Shown: positions 24,084 to 32,573, numbered from the stretch's first letter. The stretch is DNA of 64,000 nucleotides from Thermoanaerobaculia bacterium (GCA_963666565.1 OY762911.1:992001-1056000); one strand, 5' to 3'. Numbers and translations are program-made. Notes: generated by a model not told the origin, from the sequence alone.

Positions 24084-25322
24084 GTGAAAGGCGCTCTATC
24101 CGGTTGGGCCGCCGTCCTCCTGCTCGCCAGCCTTCTCGCCGCGCCGCTCCAGGCGCAGCCGATCGAGGCCTCGAAGGGCGACGCGGCGGAGCTGATCGCG
24201 AGGATCGAGGCACCACGGGACGCGGGGTCGAGCGACGACTCCGGCAAGAGCCTCGCGGAGCTGATGGAGACGCACGGCATCCCGGCGCTGAGCGTCGCCG
24301 TCGTCGAGGACTACCGGCTGCACTGGGCCAGGGCCTGGGGCGTGGCGCACGAATCTACGGGTGCGCCCGCCGACACGGACACCCTCTTCCAGGCCGCCTC
24401 GATCAGCAAGCCGGTGTCGGCGATGGCGGTGCTCCGGGCGGTCCAGGACGGACTCTTCGACCTCGACGACGACATCAACTCGATTCTCCAATCCTGGCAC
24501 CTCCGGGACGACGCGGAACTGCTCGCGGAGACACCGGTGACGGTGCGGATGCTGCTCAGCATGACGGCCGGCACCACCGTCTCGGGGTTTCCCGGCTACA
24601 AGCCCGACGCCGAGCTGCCGACCGTCGCCGAGGTCCTCGGCCGCAAGGACGAGGAAACGCCAGCGAACACCGACCCGGTCGTCGTCGGCTGGCAGCCCGG
24701 CAGCCGCTACGAGTACTCGGGAGGCGGCTCGACCATCCTGCAGCTTGCCCTGAGCGACGCCAAGGCTGAGCCGTTCGACCAGATCCTCCAGGAGACCGTC
24801 CTCGACCCGCTCGGCATGACCCGCAGTTGCTTCTGCCAGCCGCTACCGGAGGCACTCCACGGCAACGCGGCCCGGGCCGGCGGATCGGCGGCCAGGCCCG
24901 ACGGGGACGGTGGGGCGCCCCGCGCACCCTGGCACGTCTACCCGGAACTCTACGCCGCGGGCCTGTGGACGACGCCGTCGGATCTGGCGAAGTTCCTGAT
25001 CGAGGTCCAGCTTTCACTGGAAGGCCGCTCGAACCGCATCCTCACGACCGAGTCCACCCGCAAGATGGTGACGCCCGGAGGCGTGGGCCACTACGCTCTC
25101 GGCTTCACTACCGGTGCCGACACTCCGCATCGCCCGGCGCCGCCCGGAGAAGCGGACCGCCGTTTCGGACACACGGGCGGCAACTGGGGCTTCCGCGGGA
25201 ACTTCGTCGGATCGCTCGAAGGAGGTAACGGCTATGTCATCCTGGCCAACAGCAGCGAAGCCAACCCGGTCGTCTTCGTCGAGTTGCCGACCAGAATCCG
25301 GGCCGCTTACGGCTGGGAGTAG
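24084..25322 (+). CDS. Serine hydrolase, beta-lactamase class C/AmpC-like family
   Basis: FQAASISK (SxxK), YEYSGGG, LWTTPSDLAKF, GHTGGN; signal peptide. Confidence 0.9.
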   Translation: MKGALSGWAAVLLLASLLAAPLQAQPIEASKGDAAELIARIEAPRDAGSSDDSGKSLAELMETHGIPALSVAVVEDYRLHWARAWGVAHESTGAPADTDTLFQAASISKPVSAMAVLRAVQDGLFDLDDDINSILQSWHLRDDAELLAETPVTVRMLLSMTAGTTVSGFPGYKPDAELPTVAEVLGRKDEETPANTDPVVVGWQPGSRYEYSGGGSTILQLALSDAKAEPFDQILQETVLDPLGMTRSCFCQPLPEALHGNAARAGGSAARPDGDGGAPRAPWHVYPELYAAGLWTTPSDLAKFLIEVQLSLEGRSNRILTTESTRKMVTPGGVGHYALGFTTGADTPHRPAPPGEADRRFGHTGGNWGFRGNFVGSLEGGNGYVILANSSEANPVVFVELPTRIRAAYGWE

Positions 25323-25328
25323 CCGCCA

Positions 25329-25468
25329 CTGGGTGCGCGGGTCTGCCATCCGCGCGCCCGATGACGGGCGCACGGACTGGGACGCCGGTGGTGCGGGGGC
25401 GCGCCACCAGGGTGCTGACCCGCTGCCGCCAAAGGCGGGCATCAGACCGCGCCGGCCGTCAGGCCGGC
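25329..25468 (+). repeat. REP-A whose 4-nt loop is replaced by a 73-nt double-hairpin module (C)
   Basis: GCGGGTC (25337-25343), module, GACCCGC (25417-25423). Confidence 0.85.
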
Positions 25469-26613
25469 TCCTCTTTGCGGCCGCGGCGCTCTTGACCTTC
25501 GCCTGCGCCGCGCCCCCCTCCCCCGACACCACGTTGACCGAAACCCAGCAGCTCTTCCAGGCGCGCCTCGACGAACTCCGCGCCGACCTCGGCTTCATCG
25601 GCGCCACCGCCGCCTTCGTCCTCCCGGACGGCAGCGAAGGCGTCGCCGCGACCGGCTACGCCGACCCGGACAACGACCTGCCGATGGATCCTGCGCACCG
25701 CATGCCGGCCGGCAGCATCGGCAAGACGATCGCCGCCGCCACCGCGCTCAGCATGGTCAACGAGGGCCTGCTCGGCCTCGACGACTTGGCCTCCCGCTGG
25801 CTCGGCGACGAACCGTGGTGGACCCGCCTCCCCAACCACGAGACGATGACCCTCCGCCACCTGCTCAGCCACTCGAGCGGACTGACCGATCACGTCTACG
25901 ACGAAGCCTGGCGCCGCGAGGCCCGGTCCCGCCGCGGCCCTGCCGGCGACCCCGACGCCTGGTTCGAGCCGCGGGATCTCGTCCAGTACGTCCTCGACAG
26001 GGCGCCCCTGTTCCCGGCCGGCGAAGGCTACGCCTACACCGACACCGGCTACCTCGTCGCGGGGCTCATCATGGAGGCGGCGTCCGGCGGCGCGTACTAC
26101 GACGAGGCCAGGCACCGCGTCCTCGACCGCCACGACCTCCCCCGCACGGTGGAGCAGATCGGCCGCACATTTCCCGATCTCGCCCCCGGCCACGTCGGCG
26201 AGGACAACCCGTTCTCGCTTCCCGCCAAGACCGCCGAGGGCGACGTGATGGCCTTCAGTCCGCAGACCGAGTGGACCGGCGGCGGCTACGTCTCCAACTC
26301 ACGCGACCTGGCCCGCTGGGCGAAGATTCTCTACGAGGAGCGTGCCCTCGACGGACCGTACCTGGAGGAGATGCTGAACTCCGGCTACCGCGGCGAAGAC
26401 GCCGGCGCCACTTATGGCCTCGGCGTCTACCGTGCCGGGTCGCCCCACGGCGAACTCATCGGCCACGGCGGCTGGTTCCCCGGCTGGCGCTCGACGATGT
26501 ACTACCACCGGGACTCCGGCATCGCCGTCGCTGTCCAGTTCAACCAGAACGACCTCGACTTCCGCAACCAGGTCCGCGACGTACTGTTCGCCGTCCTCCT
26601 CGGACGGCACTAA
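25333..26613 (+). CDS. Serine hydrolase/D-Ala carboxypeptidase-like lipoprotein
   Basis: GSIGK, LRHLLSHSSG, YAYTDTGY, GHGG; lipobox LTFAC. Start uncertain; the nearest upstream in-frame GTG lies in the REP leader. Confidence 0.88.
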   Translation: MRGSAIRAPDDGRTDWDAGGAGARHQGADPLPPKAGIRPRRPSGRLLFAAAALLTFACAAPPSPDTTLTETQQLFQARLDELRADLGFIGATAAFVLPDGSEGVAATGYADPDNDLPMDPAHRMPAGSIGKTIAAATALSMVNEGLLGLDDLASRWLGDEPWWTRLPNHETMTLRHLLSHSSGLTDHVYDEAWRREARSRRGPAGDPDAWFEPRDLVQYVLDRAPLFPAGEGYAYTDTGYLVAGLIMEAASGGAYYDEARHRVLDRHDLPRTVEQIGRTFPDLAPGHVGEDNPFSLPAKTAEGDVMAFSPQTEWTGGGYVSNSRDLARWAKILYEERALDGPYLEEMLNSGYRGEDAGATYGLGVYRAGSPHGELIGHGGWFPGWRSTMYYHRDSGIAVAVQFNQNDLDFRNQVRDVLFAVLLGRH

Positions 26614-26778
26614 CTGGGTGCGGGGGTCGATGCGCGGGTCGGTGCGCGGGTCTTCCGACCCGCTGCGGGCGGAGCCGCGGAGCGGCGCAGCCCGAACGAA
26701 GTAGCCGCCGGCCGGCGGCCGGCGACGATACTGTCCGCCGCCTACGGCGGCAGCGGGTCAGAAGACCCGCGCACCCAG
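26614..26778. repeat. REPIN with 12-bp tandem leader units; its right arm encodes the aminotransferase C-terminus
   Basis: Begins immediately after TAA 26611-26613. Confidence 0.92.
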
Positions 26779-28136
26779 TGGGCGGCGTCGTCGGCGGCTT
26801 CGAGAAAGCGGTCGATCTCCGCGTCGCCCATCGGGGTCGAGAGCGCGCCGAAGAGGCCCCGGGCGCCCATCAGCATGCCCCGGTTCAGCATCTCCAGGGC
26901 GATCTTCTGGATCCGCGGCGCGGCGGAACGGGCGGCGAATACGGCGCGGAAGTCCTTCGGCGGCTCGTTCCCCGGCACGACGGCGAAGAGCGAGCCGCGG
27001 CCGGTCGCGACCGCCTCGATGCCGTGCCGCCGGAGCACCTGCTGGAGTCCGTCGCGCACCCGGTCGCCGAGCCGGTCGAGCTCGTCGAAGACGTCCGGCG
27101 TCAGCCGCTTCATCGTCTCGTAGCCGGCGACCATCGTCACCGGATTGCCGTTGTAGGTGCCGCCGTGGTGGACGAGTTCGCCGTCGCGGTGGTCGAAGAC
27201 CTTCATCACGTCCGCCTTGCCGGCCACCGCGCCGACGGGGAAGCCGCCGCCGATGATCTTGCCGAGCGAGACGAGGTCCGGTTCGATTCCGAAGCGGTGG
27301 CAGGCGCCGCGATAGTCGATACGGAACGAGAGCACCTCGTCCGCGATCAGGAGAGCGCCGCATTCGCGCGTCTTCGCCCGGATCGCCGCCACGAAGTCGG
27401 CCCTCGGCGGGATCAGTCCGAGCGCCGCGGGCAGCGGATCCAGCAGCACGGCGGCCAGGTCGTCGCCGTGCTCGTCGATCAGGGCGCCGCAGACCTCGAT
27501 GTCGTTGAGCGGCAGCGTGACGACTTCCGTCTCCAGGCTCTTCGCCATGCTCGGTTCGAGCGTCGTCGCCGGCCGTTCCGACTCGCCCCAGTTCTTCGGC
27601 CGCGAACTGTCGGAAGCCTGCGCGTAGTCGTAGATGCCGTGGTAGCAGCCCTCGAACTTCGCGATCTTGCCGCGGCCCGTGGCGGCGCGCGCGGCCCGGA
27701 TCGCCAGCAGCACGCCTTCGCTGCCGGAGTTCGCGAACCGCACCTGGTCGATGTACGGGATGCGCTCCACCAGCAGCTCGGCGAGGCGGATGTCGGTCTC
27801 GGTCGGCAGCGAGAACGCCGTGCCGCTCCCGATCGTCCGGGCGACCGCCTCCGTCACCCCGGGGTGCGAGTGCCCGAGGATCAGCGAGGTGTAGTTGTTG
27901 ACGAAGTCGATCCGCTCCTGGCCTTCGACGTCCGTGACGATGCAGCCTCGCCCCGAGGCCGCGTAGATCGGGTACGGGTCCATCACCAGCGTGTGGCGGC
28001 TGTTGCCGCCGGGCATGACGTCGAGGGCGCGCTCGTAGAGCGAACGCGAGGCCGACTGCTCGCCGAGGTAGCGATCCGTGGAGCGGGGTTCGGCCGCGGC
28101 GGCGGGCCGGGTTTGCCGGTCCGTGATGTCGTTCAC
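26742..28136 (-). CDS. Class III PLP aminotransferase (glutamate-1-semialdehyde aminomutase-like)
   Basis: MPGGNSR, RFANSGSE, KFEGCYHG, LLIADEV, LGKIIGGGFPVGA and HGGTYNGNP. Confidence 0.92.
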   Translation of the reverse strand: MNDITDRQTRPAAAAEPRSTDRYLGEQSASRSLYERALDVMPGGNSRHTLVMDPYPIYAASGRGCIVTDVEGQERIDFVNNYTSLILGHSHPGVTEAVARTIGSGTAFSLPTETDIRLAELLVERIPYIDQVRFANSGSEGVLLAIRAARAATGRGKIAKFEGCYHGIYDYAQASDSSRPKNWGESERPATTLEPSMAKSLETEVVTLPLNDIEVCGALIDEHGDDLAAVLLDPLPAALGLIPPRADFVAAIRAKTRECGALLIADEVLSFRIDYRGACHRFGIEPDLVSLGKIIGGGFPVGAVAGKADVMKVFDHRDGELVHHGGTYNGNPVTMVAGYETMKRLTPDVFDELDRLGDRVRDGLQQVLRRHGIEAVATGRGSLFAVVPGNEPPKDFRAVFAARSAAPRIQKIALEMLNRGMLMGARGLFGALSTPMGDAEIDRFLEAADDAAHWVRGSSDPLPP

Positions 28137-28231
28137 CCTACTCCCTCTCCCGTTGCGGTCGGCACCGAGTCGAATGCGGGGAGCGTACAGCAGGCGCCGG
28201 CGGGCGGGCCGCTTCGCTATTGTGCTGAGCC

Positions 28232-30154
28232 GTGCATGGAGCCTGTTCCGCCTCGACCGGCTCACGGACCCGCGCGGCCGCCGCGGGTCCGGTCGCGACG
28301 GCGCTGGCGATCCTCGGGGTACTGGGCTGCCTGAGCACGGCCGCCGTGCTCCCGGCCCAGGAAGGTCCGACGCACGCCATCGCCTACTTCGGCGAGCCGC
28401 GGTACGCGGCGGACATCCCGCACTTCCCCTACGTCAACCCGGACGCGCCGAAGGGCGGTGAGATGCGTACCTGGCTGCCGGGCACCTTCAACAACGTCCA
28501 TCCCTACGCGGACATGGGGCGTACGCCGAGCTGGGCCAACTGGCGGGTCACGGTGATCACCTCCGATCGCCTGATGATGGGGTCGGAGGACGAGCTCTCG
28601 ACGCTCTACTGCCTGCTCTGCGAGACGGTCGAGGTCGCCGCGGACTACAGTTGGGTGGCTTACGCGCTGCGATCCGAGGCGCGGTGGCACGACGGCGTGC
28701 CGGTCACCGTCGATGACGTCGTCTGGACGTTCGAGACCCTGAAGACAGACGGCCCGGTCAGCTTCAAGGCGGCCTGGCGGCACGTCGAGGGCATCGAGCG
28801 TCTCGGGGAGCGCTCCTTCCGCTTCCTGCTCGGCGCCGAGGGAAGAAGCCGCAGGGCGGTGATGGAGGCGTCCGCCTTCCTGCCGATGGCGAAGCACTAC
28901 TGGCGGGACCGCGACTTCACGGCGACCAGCCTGGAGGGGCCGCTCGGCAACGGCGCCTACCGCGTCAAGGAAGTCGACCCCGGCCGGCGCCTGGTCTTCG
29001 AGCGCGTTCCGGACTACTGGGCGAAGGACCTCAACTTCAGGCGCGGCTACCACAACTTCGACCGCATCTCCGTCCTCTACTTCCGGGACATGAAGGCCGG
29101 CATCCAGGCCCTCAAGGCCCGCGTCGTCGACTACTTTCGCGACCAGGACGAGCGTGAGGTCGCCACCGCCTACGACTTCCCCGAGGTGGGCATGGGGCTC
29201 TTCAACAAGGAGACCTACCGGATGCGGATGACCTACGGGATGCACTGGTCGGTCGTCTTCAACACCCGCCGCCCGCCCTTCGAGGACATCCGCGTCCGCG
29301 AGGCGCTGACTCTGGCCTACAACTTCGACTGGGGCAACCGCGCCCTCCAGTACGGCGCGCTGCGGCGGAACACGACGTTCTTCCTGGGCTCGGAGATGGC
29401 GGCGCGCGGCCTGCCGTCGGCCGCGGAACTGGCGCTGCTCGAGCCGTTGCGGGAGCACGTCCCCGACCGCGTCTTCACGCACGAGTTCGCCCTTCCCGAA
29501 ACCGACGGCTACGGCCGCAACCGGGAGGCGCTGCTGCGGGCGGGAGAGCTGCTCGACGAGGCCGGCTGGGTCCTCCGCGACATGAGGCGCGTCGACGAGG
29601 CGACCGGCGAACCGCTGCGGTTCGAGATCATGGTCATGCTCAGGGAACACGAACGGATGATGGTCCCCTTCGTCGAGAACCTGACGCGCCTCGGCATCGA
29701 AGCGACCGTCCGCCGGATGGAGTCGAACATCTTCACGAACCGGGCGCGCCAGTACGACTTCGACATGACGATGCAGAAGATTTACACCCACCCCATCCCG
29801 GCGCCGGGCGGCATGCGCAGCTACCTGCACTCCCGGAGCGTCGCCCCACCGAACCTGTTGAACTACGCGGGCATCGGGAACCCGGCGGTCGACGTCCTGG
29901 TGGAGAAGGTGATCGCGGCCGAGACGGAAGAGGAGATGAACGTCGCCGGCCGGGCGCTCGACCGGGTGCTTCTGTGGAGCTTCCACGTCATTCCCGAGGG
30001 CGCCCCCAAGGGCCGCCATCTCCTGTATTGGGATCGCTTCGGCCATCCGCCCCTGGGGCACGAGCACCTGAACTGGACCGGCTTCCCGCAGCTCTGGTGG
30101 TTCGACGCGGAGAAGAGCGCCCGGGTCGACGCCGCTTTGGGCGAGAGCAGGTAG
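28232..30154 (+). CDS. yejA: ABC transporter substrate-binding protein (YejA-like)
   Basis: HFPYVNPDAPKGG, ARWHDGVPVTVDDV, ERVPDYWAKDL, RALDRVLLW, WWFD. Confidence 0.88.
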   Translation: MHGACSASTGSRTRAAAAGPVATALAILGVLGCLSTAAVLPAQEGPTHAIAYFGEPRYAADIPHFPYVNPDAPKGGEMRTWLPGTFNNVHPYADMGRTPSWANWRVTVITSDRLMMGSEDELSTLYCLLCETVEVAADYSWVAYALRSEARWHDGVPVTVDDVVWTFETLKTDGPVSFKAAWRHVEGIERLGERSFRFLLGAEGRSRRAVMEASAFLPMAKHYWRDRDFTATSLEGPLGNGAYRVKEVDPGRRLVFERVPDYWAKDLNFRRGYHNFDRISVLYFRDMKAGIQALKARVVDYFRDQDEREVATAYDFPEVGMGLFNKETYRMRMTYGMHWSVVFNTRRPPFEDIRVREALTLAYNFDWGNRALQYGALRRNTTFFLGSEMAARGLPSAAELALLEPLREHVPDRVFTHEFALPETDGYGRNREALLRAGELLDEAGWVLRDMRRVDEATGEPLRFEIMVMLREHERMMVPFVENLTRLGIEATVRRMESNIFTNRARQYDFDMTMQKIYTHPIPAPGGMRSYLHSRSVAPPNLLNYAGIGNPAVDVLVEKVIAAETEEEMNVAGRALDRVLLWSFHVIPEGAPKGRHLLYWDRFGHPPLGHEHLNWTGFPQLWWFDAEKSARVDAALGESR

Positions 30155-30327
30155 TGGCTGTCCTGCGAACCCGGCGCCTGTCGGTGCGCGGGTCTGCCAT
30201 CCGCGCGCCCGATGACGGGCGCGCGAACTGGGACGCTGGCGGCGCTGGGACGCGCCGCCAGGGTGCTGACCCGCTGCCGCCGAAGGCGGCTGGAAAGACG
30301 CGCCGGCCGGAGGCCGGCGACCTTTAG
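30154..30327 (+). other. Repeat-encoded bridge ORF (57 aa) between yejA and yejB
   Basis: GTG overlaps the yejA TAG; its TAG ends 1 nt before the yejB GTG. Confidence 0.45.
30183..30320 (+). repeat. REP-A with 73-nt module C in its loop
   Basis: Colinear with 25329-25468. Confidence 0.85.
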
Positions 30328-30328
30328 A

Positions 30329-31405
30329 GTGCTCCTCTACGTCCTGCGCCGGATCCTCCTCATGGTGCCGACCCTGGTCGGCGTGCTGCTGATCAACTTC
30401 GTCATCATCCAGGCGGCGCCCGGCGGCCCGGTCGACCAGGCGATCGCCCGGCTTCAGGGGACCGGCCTCGACGCGGGAGTCGGGCTGCTCGGCGGCGGTG
30501 CGGCCGACGCGACATTCGAGGCCGAACTCTCCGCCACCGGCGGCATCGACCCGGCGCTCATCGAGGAGCTCGAGCGGCAGTTCGGCTTCGACAAGCCGGC
30601 GCACGTCCGGTTCGGTCTCATGCTGCGCGACTACCTGCGCTTCGACCTGGGCGAGAGCTTCTACCAGGACGTGCCGGTCATCGACCTCGTCCTCGACCGG
30701 CTGCCGGTGTCGATGTCGCTGGGGCTGTGGACGCTGCTCATCGTCTACTCGGTTTCGATCCCGCTCGGCATCCGCAAGGCGACGGCCGACGGTTCTCCCT
30801 TCGACGTGTGGACCAGCGTCGTGATCCTCGTCGGCTACGCGATCCCCGGCTTCATCCTCGCCGTGCTGTTGATCGTGCTGTTCGCGCGCGGCGGGATGAT
30901 CGAGTACTTCCCGCTGCGCGGCCTGGTGTCCGACGACTTTGCCGACCTCGGGACGTGGGCCCAGGTCAAGGACTACTTCTGGCACCTGGTGCTGCCGATC
31001 ACGGCCCTGGTCGCCGGCAGCTTCGCGACGCTGACGACGCTGACGAAGAACTCGTTCCTCGACGAGATCAACAAGCAGTACGTGCTGACGGCCAAGGCCA
31101 AGGGTCTGAAGACGCGGCGCGTGCTCTACGGCCACGTGTTCCGCAACGCGATGCTGATCGTGATCGCCGGGTTCCCGCGGGCTCTCGTCGGCGCGCTGTT
31201 CACGGGCGTGCTGCTGGCGGAGATCATCTTCTCGCTGGACGGGCTGGGGCTGCTCGGCTTCGAGGCGATCGTCACCCGGGACTACCCGATCATCTTCGGA
31301 ACGCTGTACATCTCGACGCTGCTGGCGCTGGTGCTGCAGCTTCTGACCGACATCACCTACACGCTGACCGATCCGCGGATCGACTTCGAGACTCGCGACG
31401 TATGA
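30329..31405 (+). CDS. yejB: ABC transporter permease (YejB-like)
   Basis: YVLRRILLMVPTL, QAAPGGPVDQ, TKNSFLDEINKQYVLTAKAKGL, DPRIDFE. Confidence 0.93.
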   Translation: MLLYVLRRILLMVPTLVGVLLINFVIIQAAPGGPVDQAIARLQGTGLDAGVGLLGGGAADATFEAELSATGGIDPALIEELERQFGFDKPAHVRFGLMLRDYLRFDLGESFYQDVPVIDLVLDRLPVSMSLGLWTLLIVYSVSIPLGIRKATADGSPFDVWTSVVILVGYAIPGFILAVLLIVLFARGGMIEYFPLRGLVSDDFADLGTWAQVKDYFWHLVLPITALVAGSFATLTTLTKNSFLDEINKQYVLTAKAKGLKTRRVLYGHVFRNAMLIVIAGFPRALVGALFTGVLLAEIIFSLDGLGLLGFEAIVTRDYPIIFGTLYISTLLALVLQLLTDITYTLTDPRIDFETRDV

Positions 31406-31548
31406 GCAGTTCGGAACCCCGTGGCGCGGAAGCCGGCGCTTTGCGCCGGATGCCGGCGGGAACCCGGGTGGCGCGATCCGCGCCACCCGCGAACCAGTCC
31501 GTGCGCCCGCCATCGGGCGCACGGATGGCACCCCGGCGCACCCAGTGA
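31402..31548 (+). other. Repeat-encoded bridge ORF (48 aa) between yejB and yejE
   Basis: ATGA overlap with the yejB stop and GTGA overlap with the yejE start. Confidence 0.5.
31428..31545 (-). repeat. REP-B with 72-nt module C in its loop
   Basis: Reverse complement equals the 23996 REP-B plus tail, interrupted by module C. Confidence 0.82.
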
Positions 31549-32573
31549 GCAGCCTCGGGCGCAGGAGATGGGCCGCCTTCAAGGCGAACCGCCGCGGCTG
31601 GTGGTCCTTGCGGATCTTCCTCGTCGTCTTCGGCGCCAGCCTCTTCGCCGAGGTGCTCGCCAACGACAAGCCGCTCGTCGTCCGCCACGAGGGCCGGTTC
31701 TACCTGCCGATCGTCGCGGCGTACGCGGAGACCGAGTTCGGCGGCGTGTTCGAGACGGAGGCGGACTACCGCGAGGAGTACGTCAAGGAGCTCGTACGGG
31801 ACGGCGGCGGCTGGATGATCTGGCCGCCGATCCCCTACGCGCACGACACGATCGACTACGAACTGCCTGGTCCGGCCCCCTACCCGCCGTCGCGCCGGCA
31901 CTGGCTGGGCACCGACGACGTCGGCAAGGACGTCCTCGCGGGCCTCATCTACGGCATCCGGCTGTCCTTCCTGTTCGGACTCGTGCTCACGGCCCTGAGC
32001 TCGATCGTCGGCGTGCTGGTGGGCGCGGTCCAGGGCTACCTGGGAGGCAAGGTGGACCTCTTCGGCCAGCGCCTGATCGAGATCTGGGCCGGGCTGCCGA
32101 TCCTCTTCGTGCTGATCATCCTCTCCAGCATCGTCGAGTCGAACGTCTTCTGGCTGCTCGGCATCCTGGTCGCGTTCAGTTGGATGGCGCTCGTGGGCGT
32201 GGTGCGGGCCGAGGTGCTGCGCGCGCGCAACTTCCAGTATGTGACGGCCGCGCGGGCCCTGGGAGCGGGGGACCGGCGGATCGTCCGACGGCATGTCCTG
32301 CCCAACGCGATGGTCGCGACCTTCACCTTCCTGCCCTTCATCCTCACCGGCTCGATCACCCTGCTCACGTCGCTCGACTTCCTCGGCTTCGGCCTGCCCG
32401 CCGACGCGCCCTCGCTCGGCCGGCTGCTCGCCCAGGGCCGCGCCAACCTGCACGCCCCTTGGCTGGGTGTCATGTCCTTCTTTACGCTGGCGACGCTCTT
32501 GACGCTCGTCATCTTCATCGGCGAAGCGCTGCGCGACGCCTTCGATCCACGCCGCACTGGGATGCAGTCGTGA
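31545..32573 (+). CDS. yejE: ABC transporter permease (YejE-like)
   Basis: RRWAAFKANRRGWWSL, ANDKPL, HWLGTDD, TSLDFLGFGLP, GEALRDAFDPR. Confidence 0.93.
   Translation: MSSLGRRRWAAFKANRRGWWSLRIFLVVFGASLFAEVLANDKPLVVRHEGRFYLPIVAAYAETEFGGVFETEADYREEYVKELVRDGGGWMIWPPIPYAHDTIDYELPGPAPYPPSRRHWLGTDDVGKDVLAGLIYGIRLSFLFGLVLTALSSIVGVLVGAVQGYLGGKVDLFGQRLIEIWAGLPILFVLIILSSIVESNVFWLLGILVAFSWMALVGVVRAEVLRARNFQYVTAARALGAGDRRIVRRHVLPNAMVATFTFLPFILTGSITLLTSLDFLGFGLPADAPSLGRLLAQGRANLHAPWLGVMSFFTLATLLTLVIFIGEALRDAFDPRRTGMQS

Follow-up and report, generated by a model that had tools for sequence, protein, structure and literature searches.

In the genome of a Thermoanaerobaculia bacterium (GCA_963666565.1; genome G000, a single contig, C1, of 4,786,144 bp and 70% G+C) we analysed a stretch of 64,000 nt (OY762911.1:992001-1056000, which is G000:C1:992001-1056000; hereafter the window). 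At three sites in it, a non-coding sequence that we call the module replaces the 4-nt loop of a repetitive extragenic palindrome (REP), a hairpin with the one-sided head GGGTGCGC. We class the module among the small non-autonomous mobile repeats; it was found only in one genus of sponge-associated Acidobacteriota. Comparison of occupied sites with their orthologues in related species shows that it goes into sites that were already there, in a single orientation, and it is probably a mobile DNA element independent of the REPs, about 70 nt long, non-coding and non-autonomous.

Empty and filled orthologous sites

The host hairpins belong to two types, REP-A (GGTGCGCGGGTC-loop-GACCCGC) and REP-B (GGTGCGCCGG(G/C)(G/C)-loop-CGCCGGC). 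Both are true REPs: they are short GC-rich palindromes with a one-sided head, present in hundreds of copies that are mostly intergenic, and the genome encodes one Y1_Tnp protein resembling a REP-associated tyrosine transposase (RAYT), whose gene (G000:C1:749118-749700; Y1_Tnp match at G000:C1:749427-749648, with 34.8 bits for the open reading frame against a cut-off of 23) has a REP-A array directly downstream and head-like repeats upstream. In a census of the genome, 727 of the 850 REP-A heads carry a 4-nt loop (TTCC in 437, TTCT in 201, CTCT in 48 and CTCC in 23); in another 22 the loop is the module and measures exactly 73 nt. For the GGTGCGCCGGCG heads (n = 112), the loop measures 4 nt in 69 cases and 72 or 73 nt in five; the REP-B-type heads number 112 + 38 + 13, and 13 of these have loops of 72-73 nt.

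The original prediction, made from the window alone, had placed three copies of the module inside REP hairpins; all three are there, with sequences that agree with its description (Table 1). Copies 1 and 2 are flanked by GGTGCGCGGGTC and GACCCGC, as expected of REP-A, and copy 3, read on the minus strand, by GGTGCGCCGGGG and CGCCGGC, as expected of REP-B. The core pattern of the first module hairpin (H1) occurs twice in the window and in none of 100 shuffles. It had further been proposed that the module is a second element that targets REP hairpin loops, and this proposal gains direct support from orthologous REPs that have a plain 4-nt loop where this or another species has the module.

We compared 18 such pairs of empty and filled sites, drawn from the copies of this genome (designated 'own' below), from loci of other species (L-numbers) and from sister genomes (G-numbers); to find sites that are empty here, we compared this genome with the flanking sequences of 118 module loci of other species. 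Site 1 of the window is filled in G018 and G014 and empty in G008, where the loop is TTCC, and in G006, where it is TTCT. At site 2, G006, G003 and G001 have the same REP-A with the loop TTCT and no module. G006 and G003 are 93-95% identical to this genome over the flanking SBP gene and share both the downstream hairpins and the atypical head (TGTCGGTGCGC); since this head is common to them, the REP copy is orthologous and the REP itself was not replaced. The spacer at site 2 measures 173 nt here versus 104 nt in G006 and G003, a difference of 69 nt. At the spacer of site 3, G001, G017 and G011 have a REP-B with a 4-nt loop, G007 holds a module of the other subfamily in a REP of type B2, and G014 has the matching empty REP-B2.

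The converse arrangement was also found, with sites filled in other species and empty here: the REP-A loci L004, L074 and L009, the REP-B locus L050, and the non-REP loci L012, L013/L027, L117, L058 (just after a tRNA) and L017/L038/L078, as well as L059, a copy of another repeat that is module-free in this genome. Among this genome's own copies, the REP-B copy at 121718 is empty in G008, the non-REP copies at 4403604 and 608447 are each empty in 5/5 close relatives, and the non-REP copy at 3641787 is empty in the three relatives that aligned and filled in G018. Because the REPs of sister species keep their 4-nt loop without the module at sites 1 and 2 and at no fewer than five other REPs (>=5), the module must enter pre-existing REPs and is not a mere REP variant.

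The junctions follow a common rule. The net gain is usually 69 nt and varies by a base or two, since module lengths range from 70 to 73 nt, and no extra mismatches arise in the flanks when the alignment treats a dinucleotide of the empty site as exchanged for a ~71-nt unit, TG(N)CATCC...CCGGGT(T/G). The replaced dinucleotides, hand-read from MAFFT alignments for the 18 events, were TT in eight, CT in five, TC in three, and AG and TG in one each. A separate pairwise junction display confirmed 13 of the 18; the MAFFT alignments are the sole basis for L050, L059, L078, L027, L058, own 3641787 (against L166/L167), own 121718 (L182) and window site 1 against L191, and window site 3 lies outside the pairwise display. 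The replaced dinucleotide is preceded by G or C and in most cases followed by C, which gives a target of approximately S|YT(C). The 3' tail of the module fits this rule of dinucleotide replacement, in that its last two bases (CC or CT) vary within a subfamily as positions 3-4 of the REP loop do, and the preceding pair (TT or TG) is subfamily-specific. Two other rules were rejected, namely that 69 nt are simply inserted at S^YT or Y^T and that 2 nt of the target are duplicated, each leaving junction mismatches in several events. The module also lacks two hallmarks of a classical MITE (miniature inverted-repeat transposable element): its ends, TG(N)CATCCG and CCGGGT(T/G), do not form an inverted repeat, and in the 18 events the target dinucleotide is replaced and there is no target-site duplication.

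Insertion into REPs is strictly oriented. A REP head lies on the 5' side of 47 of the 75 unique full-length copies in this genome and of 53 of 111 in other genomes, giving an orientation to the head of 100:0; a head-like match on the 3' side only was seen in three copies, none of which is a real REP. The fixed orientation can be explained by the target, as the pyrimidine dinucleotide is found only on the top strand of the loop (TTCC versus GGAA). A profile search with nhmmer gave 104 matches in the genome (4.79 Mb) at E <= 0.01, of which 83 had E < 1e-5. REP stems hold 53 of these matches, 36 in A-type and 17 in B-type hairpins; the 51 outside are overall lower-scoring. REP loops make up a tiny fraction of the genome (about 1000 x 4 nt), so that the preference for them is strong even when co-amplification is allowed for. 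Whether the module always sits in REP loops, as the original prediction had left to be checked, thus has a divided answer: REP loops are favoured, and about half of the copies are elsewhere, which makes REP targeting a preference and not an exclusive habit. Hairpin loops of any kind were considered as the target and rejected, because for 90 non-REP copies the two flanks pair no better than expected by chance (mean run 0.43, versus 0.68 when shuffled). Of the two main subfamilies, TG/GTT has 65 copies and AC/TGA 38, and both are represented in REP-A, in REP-B and outside REPs; this excludes a single origin followed by hitch-hiking and means that the association with REPs arose many times. Hitch-hiking on the host repeat probably does add copies.

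These observations also bear on a different history, in which the module is itself immobile, arose once in a REP loop and spread as a long-loop variant of the REP through copying by RAYT, short-tract conversion or template switching. The number of copies in REP stems and their single orientation fit such a history, and so does the 73-nt loop TGCC...GGGTGCT, whose G is absent from every empty loop and which recurs at different REP-A loci, as copying between REPs predicts; two other repeats, element a and a MITE of other species (see below), likewise carry the module as multi-copy composites. However, modules were gained in places that offer neither a REP nor flanking homology (own 4403604, 608447 and 3641787; L012, L013, L117 and L058), the flanks there show no pairing beyond chance, both main subfamilies are found in all three contexts, and the head variant of site 2 is the same as in its empty orthologues. 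As the sole process, spread as a REP variant is already contradicted by the gains outside REPs, and we regard it as distinctly unlikely.

Structure, distribution and genomic setting

The module forms two GC-rich hairpins, H1 of 15 bp with a bulged C and H2 of 10-11 bp, and both are maintained by compensatory changes. Among 186 unique copies, columns 5-19 pair with 24-39 in H1, with pair 5-39 being CG in 110 and AT in 44 copies and pair 12-31 TA in 84, AT in 59 and CG in 7; in H2 the four outer pairs covary, for example 47-66, which is GC in 132 and CG in 27. Some of the H1 conservation seen in the 70 loci of other genomes is artefactual, as these loci were retrieved with the H1 pattern. In an alignment of 73 copies (A1), pair 49-67 is UA in 65 and CG in 4, pair 48-68 GC in 53 and CG in 12, pair 47-69 GC in 52, UA in 8 and CG in 3, and pair 46-70 GC in 56, UA in 9 and AU in 2. 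Of the cells in this alignment 92.3% pair, versus 28-42% with the partners slid, and the covariation score is 0.166 versus 0.054 when shuffled, a value reached in 0/500 shuffles. The covariation noticed earlier in the second stem (GGTGG/CCACC versus GGCGG/CCGCC) is therefore real, as these pair counts and shuffles attest, and the selection on structure that had been suspected is seen in the preservation of both hairpins. As single-stranded DNA, REP stem and module together fold into a three-way junction, with z = -4.0, -5.6 and -6.0 at the three sites of the window. The conserved structure may reflect recognition of a DNA hairpin by the mobilising enzyme.

Structure of this kind could also be kept for the sake of RNA, and the module might be mainly a functional structured RNA, such as an mRNA stabiliser or processing site in operon spacers, that is under selection and not selfish. 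REPs of E. coli modulate mRNA stability from positions in operon spacers, copies 2 and 3 lie in the spacers of an operon for an ATP-binding cassette (ABC) transporter, and in co-directional spacers the module is in sense orientation in 36 cases against 8; the covarying structure would suit this explanation as well. The mismatches argue the other way: on the module strand, a hand tally over the H1 and H2 rows gave 97 of the A.C type and 54 of the G.U type, the opposite of what a sense-strand RNA helix predicts, so that there is no sign of such a helix being conserved. Furthermore, copy 3 is antisense to its operon, copies within coding sequences are found in both orientations, and the occupancy of sites varies among close species, with 0 to 53 copies per genome within the genus. 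The comparison with Rfam that had been proposed alongside the original prediction matched no family: its covariance models gave 0 matches at the gathering score in the window and three other loci, with only junk at E >= 0.31 around 25300-25480. A primarily RNA-level function is thus extremely unlikely in our estimate. The contigs of the RNA runs stem from a relative that is 5-9% different and are uninformative on transcription of the module.

The family is confined to a narrow lineage. In public genomes the strict H1 pattern occurs at 118 loci at least (>=118), and the 81 matches listed are all from metagenome-assembled genomes of Acidobacteriota (labelled Thermoanaerobaculia, Ca. Multivorans, Holophagales, Vicinamibacteraceae or Acidobacteria). 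When 301 genomes of the class were sampled, the strict pattern turned up in 28/32 genomes of the genus and in 0/269 genomes from 106 other genera. There was no module match in collections of viral contigs, plasmids or phages. Strict-pattern copies range from 0 to 53 per genome in the genus, with counts of 53 in G266, 48 in G164, 35 in G056, 22 in G179, 16 in G146 and 14 in G122, and many copies in G052 as well; this genome has 27, as opposed to 4 and 3 in its close relatives G006 and G003, copies are likewise few in G013 and G009, and the spread in copy number is a mark of recent, lineage-specific activity.

The module is also a fixed part of two other multi-copy repeats, one of ~330 nt and the other a MITE. 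The former, element a, has a covarying long-range inverted repeat of 27 nt in which GGGGC.GGAGGGGTC...CCCAGGTG is paired with CACCTGGG...GACCCCTCC.GCCCC. At least 30 partial or full copies of element a are present here, most of them without the module, and several per genome in relatives; it has no Rfam match, and the module, when present, is at one fixed position. The MITE, of ~245 nt, was seen in other species (L064, L044) and is absent from the orthologous site here; it has inverted repeats of ~25 bp starting TAGCAGCCCRTGG, and the internal position of the module is not the same in all copies, two having been seen. The MITE of L044 seems to lie within a truncated module, which in turn occupies a REP loop. 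Elsewhere, whole modules are duplicated in tandem, head to tail (G000:C1:4270265-4270400, L088, L080 and L090), and at G000:C1:4377917-4377989 there are three tandem units of 24 nt, each consisting of a REP-A head and left arm to which TGCCATCCG, the beginning of the module, is joined where the loop and right arm would be, which may be the product of recombination between a REP and a module.

Table 1. Module copies of the window with the REP arms that enclose them, and positions of the ~330-nt element in the genome
Feature	Position	Strand	Basis or context
Site 1, REP-A head and left arm (CTGGGTGCGCGGGTC)	25329..25343	+	motif is that of the genome's 850 REP-A heads
Module copy 1, 73 nt, TGCC...GGGTGCT subfamily	25344..25416	+	nhmmer E=2.9e-18; fold
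Copy 1, hairpins H1 and H2	H1 ~25346-25380; H2 ~25385-25411	+	fold
Site 1, REP-A right arm (GACCCGC)	25417..25423	+	more hairpins of the cluster downstream to ~25470
Site 2, REP-A head (variant GTCGGTGCGC) and left arm	30180..30194	+	in the spacer that separates the SBP_bac_5 gene from the first permease gene
Module copy 2, 73 nt	30195..30267	+	nhmmer E=7.8e-18
Site 2, REP-A right arm	30268..30274	+	sequence; fold
Site 3, REP-B right arm (CGCCGGC on the minus strand)	31452..31458	-	between two BPD_transp_1 permease genes
Module copy 3, 72 nt, TGCC...GGGTTCC subfamily, antisense to the operon	31459..31530	-	nhmmer E=5.9e-17
Site 3, REP-B head and left arm (CTGGGTGCGCCGGGG on the minus strand)	31531..31545	-	sequence; fold
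~330-nt element	L120:3431-3801 (G000:C1:3956930-3957300); near 4638170, 2085920, 3372817-3373012, 3450062-3450195		

Within the window, copy 1 lies downstream of a gene for a beta-lactamase-fold protein, and copies 2 and 3 are in the spacers of an ABC importer operon in which an SBP_bac_5 gene precedes two BPD_transp_1 genes. A gain of 69 nt, the usual one, corresponds to 23 codons, and open reading frames run through copy 1 in 5/6 frames and through copy 3 in 6/6. One copy in a coding sequence is own 608447 (L153:677-748; G000:C1:608376-608447), which is antisense and in frame and adds 23 residues to the second ABC domain of an ABC-F-type ATPase; the insertion is absent from 5/5 close relatives. 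The module thus inserts in frame into genes, and also into operon spacers, of uncultured sponge symbionts, and it breaks short-read assemblies there.

Two further observations concern the REP clusters of the window. At 31398-31552, and likewise at L126 and L128, entire clusters are inserted at the overlapping stop/start junction of two permease genes and have on either side a directly repeated stretch of the junction sequence, 8-12 nt long (GTGAGCAG or GGACGTGTGAG), through which the stop and start codons are both preserved; close relatives have the bare 15-nt junction. At 26536-26802, the summed contig depth is 100-300x that of neighbouring bins in three DNA-type runs, indicating a repeat of very high copy number, presumably a REP cluster.

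Candidate mobilising enzymes

Based on these comparisons we can sketch how the module would spread. The 4-nt loops of RAYT-associated REP hairpins (C|TTCC, C|TTCT, G|TCCC) are its favoured landing sites, and unstructured sites, in-frame coding sequence and two other repeat families are entered as well; once inside a repeat the module would also be co-amplified with its host. Insertion would be catalysed in trans by an enzyme that reads hairpin DNA together with the exposed top strand of the REP loop; the candidates are a single-strand enzyme of the HUH type, such as RAYT, or a recombinase with a 2-nt crossover core.

The RAYT, an HUH enzyme of the Y1 type, may move the module as single-stranded DNA, which would make the module a hyperparasite of the REP/RAYT system. 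The single Y1_Tnp gene of this genome is flanked by REP-A arrays, and RAYTs are reported to cleave single-stranded REP substrates at C|T or C|A beside the hairpin and to be able to transfer strands (PMC8266576). The replaced dinucleotide is CT or TT in 13 of the 18 events. Several traits of the module are HUH-like, namely its fixed strand orientation, the lack of inverted repeats and of target duplication, a hairpin at either end, and a length too short to allow a double-stranded intermediate. In addition, 4/4 module-free genomes have no Y1_Tnp match, and there are modest biases towards the lagging-strand template (53:30) and towards the sense strand (36:8, compared with 195:136 for REP-A, from rough gene calls). 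However, no Y1_Tnp was detectable in the module-bearing genomes G266, G164, G179, G146, G122 and G018, although the matches that do exist are weak (30-41 bits) and divergent copies may escape detection. The 5' end of the module also lacks the REP head motif, H1 and H2 resemble neither each other nor the REP stems, and a simple cut-and-join at Y|T fails the junctions in about 8 of the 18 events by hand tally. We consider mobilisation by RAYT possible, if rather unlikely.

Alternatively, the module might derive from, or be mobilised in trans by, a recombinase of the IS110 family (DEDD, bridge-RNA type). The genome carries five identical insertion sequences (ISs) of this family, each of ~1.4 kb and with the Pfam domains DEDD_Tnp_IS110 and Transposase_20 (G000:C1 near 347495, 725849, 740466, 804857 and 2464105; L143-L147), and all five are in REP-A heads, exactly between CTGGGT and GCGCGGGTC. 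A precedent exists in ssr9 of ISPpu9: the report on this element describes minicircles of a non-coding module and an AG dinucleotide at both ends (PMC12288879), and our module is similarly bounded by like dinucleotides (TG...TT or TG...TG) and replaces a target dinucleotide. Yet the resident IS lands in the REP head and not in the loop, and its ends (AATGGGATGG.../...GGACCATACAT) are unlike those of the module. Across the genus, a module lies within 1.5 kb at only 3/30 IS110 loci, and no IS110 match was obtained in G056, G146 and G122, which have 35, 16 and 14 modules. A double-stranded circle of 69 bp would, moreover, be physically implausible given the stiffness of DNA. IS110 ends as the source of the module were rejected on the grounds that the end sequences differ and few IS110 loci have a module nearby; for this comparison the IS ends were those of the resident IS110 elements. 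An origin or mobilisation by way of IS110 is, in our judgement, very unlikely.

Several points weigh against an independent mobile element as we propose it. No mobilising enzyme was found, and neither RAYT nor IS110 presence tracks the copy number of the module: Y1_Tnp was undetected in five module-rich genomes (G266 with 53, G164 with 48, G179 with 22, G146 with 16 and G122 with 14), and IS110 had no match in G056 (35 copies), G146 and G122. There was no TnpB in this genome and no Y2_Tnp (IS91) in 41 genomes, a search in which the control genomes were likewise silent. An autonomous element with module-like ends was not found among the partial matches in this genome or at the 30 IS110 loci; the partial module matches, considered as ends of a larger element, revealed nothing convincing on inspection. 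Gain as opposed to precise loss was deduced by parsimony from few relatives and no species tree, and spread from REP to REP could have come about by short-tract conversion through the identical stems. A plain 69-nt insertion is mismatched at the junction in about 8 of the 18 events (hand tally). Finally, assembly contigs (Logan, four DNA-type runs covering the region) end inside or beside every module, and because contigs break at the repeat no polymorphism is visible at the level of the population.

One form that the proposed element could take, which we put forward tentatively and hold to be possible though not probable, is that of a hyperparasitic single-strand mini-transposon, moved by a hairpin-reading enzyme (RAYT or one as yet undescribed) that overwrites a pyrimidine dinucleotide, with REP loops serving as landing pads that provide free copying. 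If this were true, there would be three nested tiers of replicators, consisting of the host genome, the REP/RAYT system and the module. Should RAYT or an unknown enzyme indeed move the module, no earlier example would exist of the REP system being exploited by a second replicator, and the module would rank among the smallest transposable units known. The spread of REPs and the cellular role of RAYTs are still largely unsettled, and this family offers dozens of natural, recent and base-resolved insertions into REP loops, with matching empty sites in sister species. Moreover, the junction rule (one orientation, usually +69 nt, a YT dinucleotide replaced) can be tested directly with purified enzymes and oligonucleotides.

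Comparison with known systems

In the open full-text literature, with subscription journals and ISfinder outside the scope of the search, we came upon no account of a ~70-nt non-coding element with REP loops as its insertion sites. Insertion sequences that use such repeats are well established. IS1397 and ISKpn1 insert in the loops of palindromic units in E. coli. Among IS110-family elements, ISPpu9, ISPpu10 and others use REPs as targets (PMC1525189; PMC12288879). The module resembles these REP-targeting ISs in its preference for the REP hairpin and in its orientation-specific insertion; it differs from them, as they are 1.2-1.5 kb long and encode their own transposase, in being a non-coding unit of ~70 nt that sits in the loop and has half of its copies outside REPs. 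Another likeness is to ssr9 of ISPpu9, a non-coding passenger that is moved into REPs in trans and bears a dinucleotide at each end (PMC12288879). However, ssr9 carries copies of the end boxes of the IS and is found beside the transposase gene, whereas the module is far smaller and has no ends in common with the resident IS110.

Intragenic REPs, REPs with complex loops and REPs nested in other palindromes have all been reported before (PMC3733652). Like intragenic REPs and the Rickettsia palindromic elements (RPEs), the module inserts in frame in protein-coding genes. RPEs measure 100-150 bp, and to our knowledge they have no preference for the loops of another repeat.

The lack of terminal inverted repeats and of target duplication, subterminal hairpins, and insertion in one orientation beside a very short target motif are all known from the palindrome-associated elements of the IS200/IS605 type, from IS91 and from Helitrons. 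Elements of the IS200/IS605 type have similar hairpins at their two ends and a fixed tetra- or pentanucleotide target; in the module, by contrast, H1 and H2 differ in sequence and the target is the loose S|YT(C), so it does not belong with them, and the only Y1 enzyme found here is the RAYT.

A further comparison is with the REPs themselves and with REPINs. Like them, the module is a GC-rich hairpin repeat with many copies, most of which lie between genes; it is limited to a lineage and is probably processed in single-stranded form. Unlike a REP, it begins with TG(N)CATCC, lacks the head GGGTGCGC and consists of two unlike hairpins instead of one; and unlike a REPIN, it is not arranged around a RAYT gene and forms no REP dimers, but lies inside the loops of REPs.

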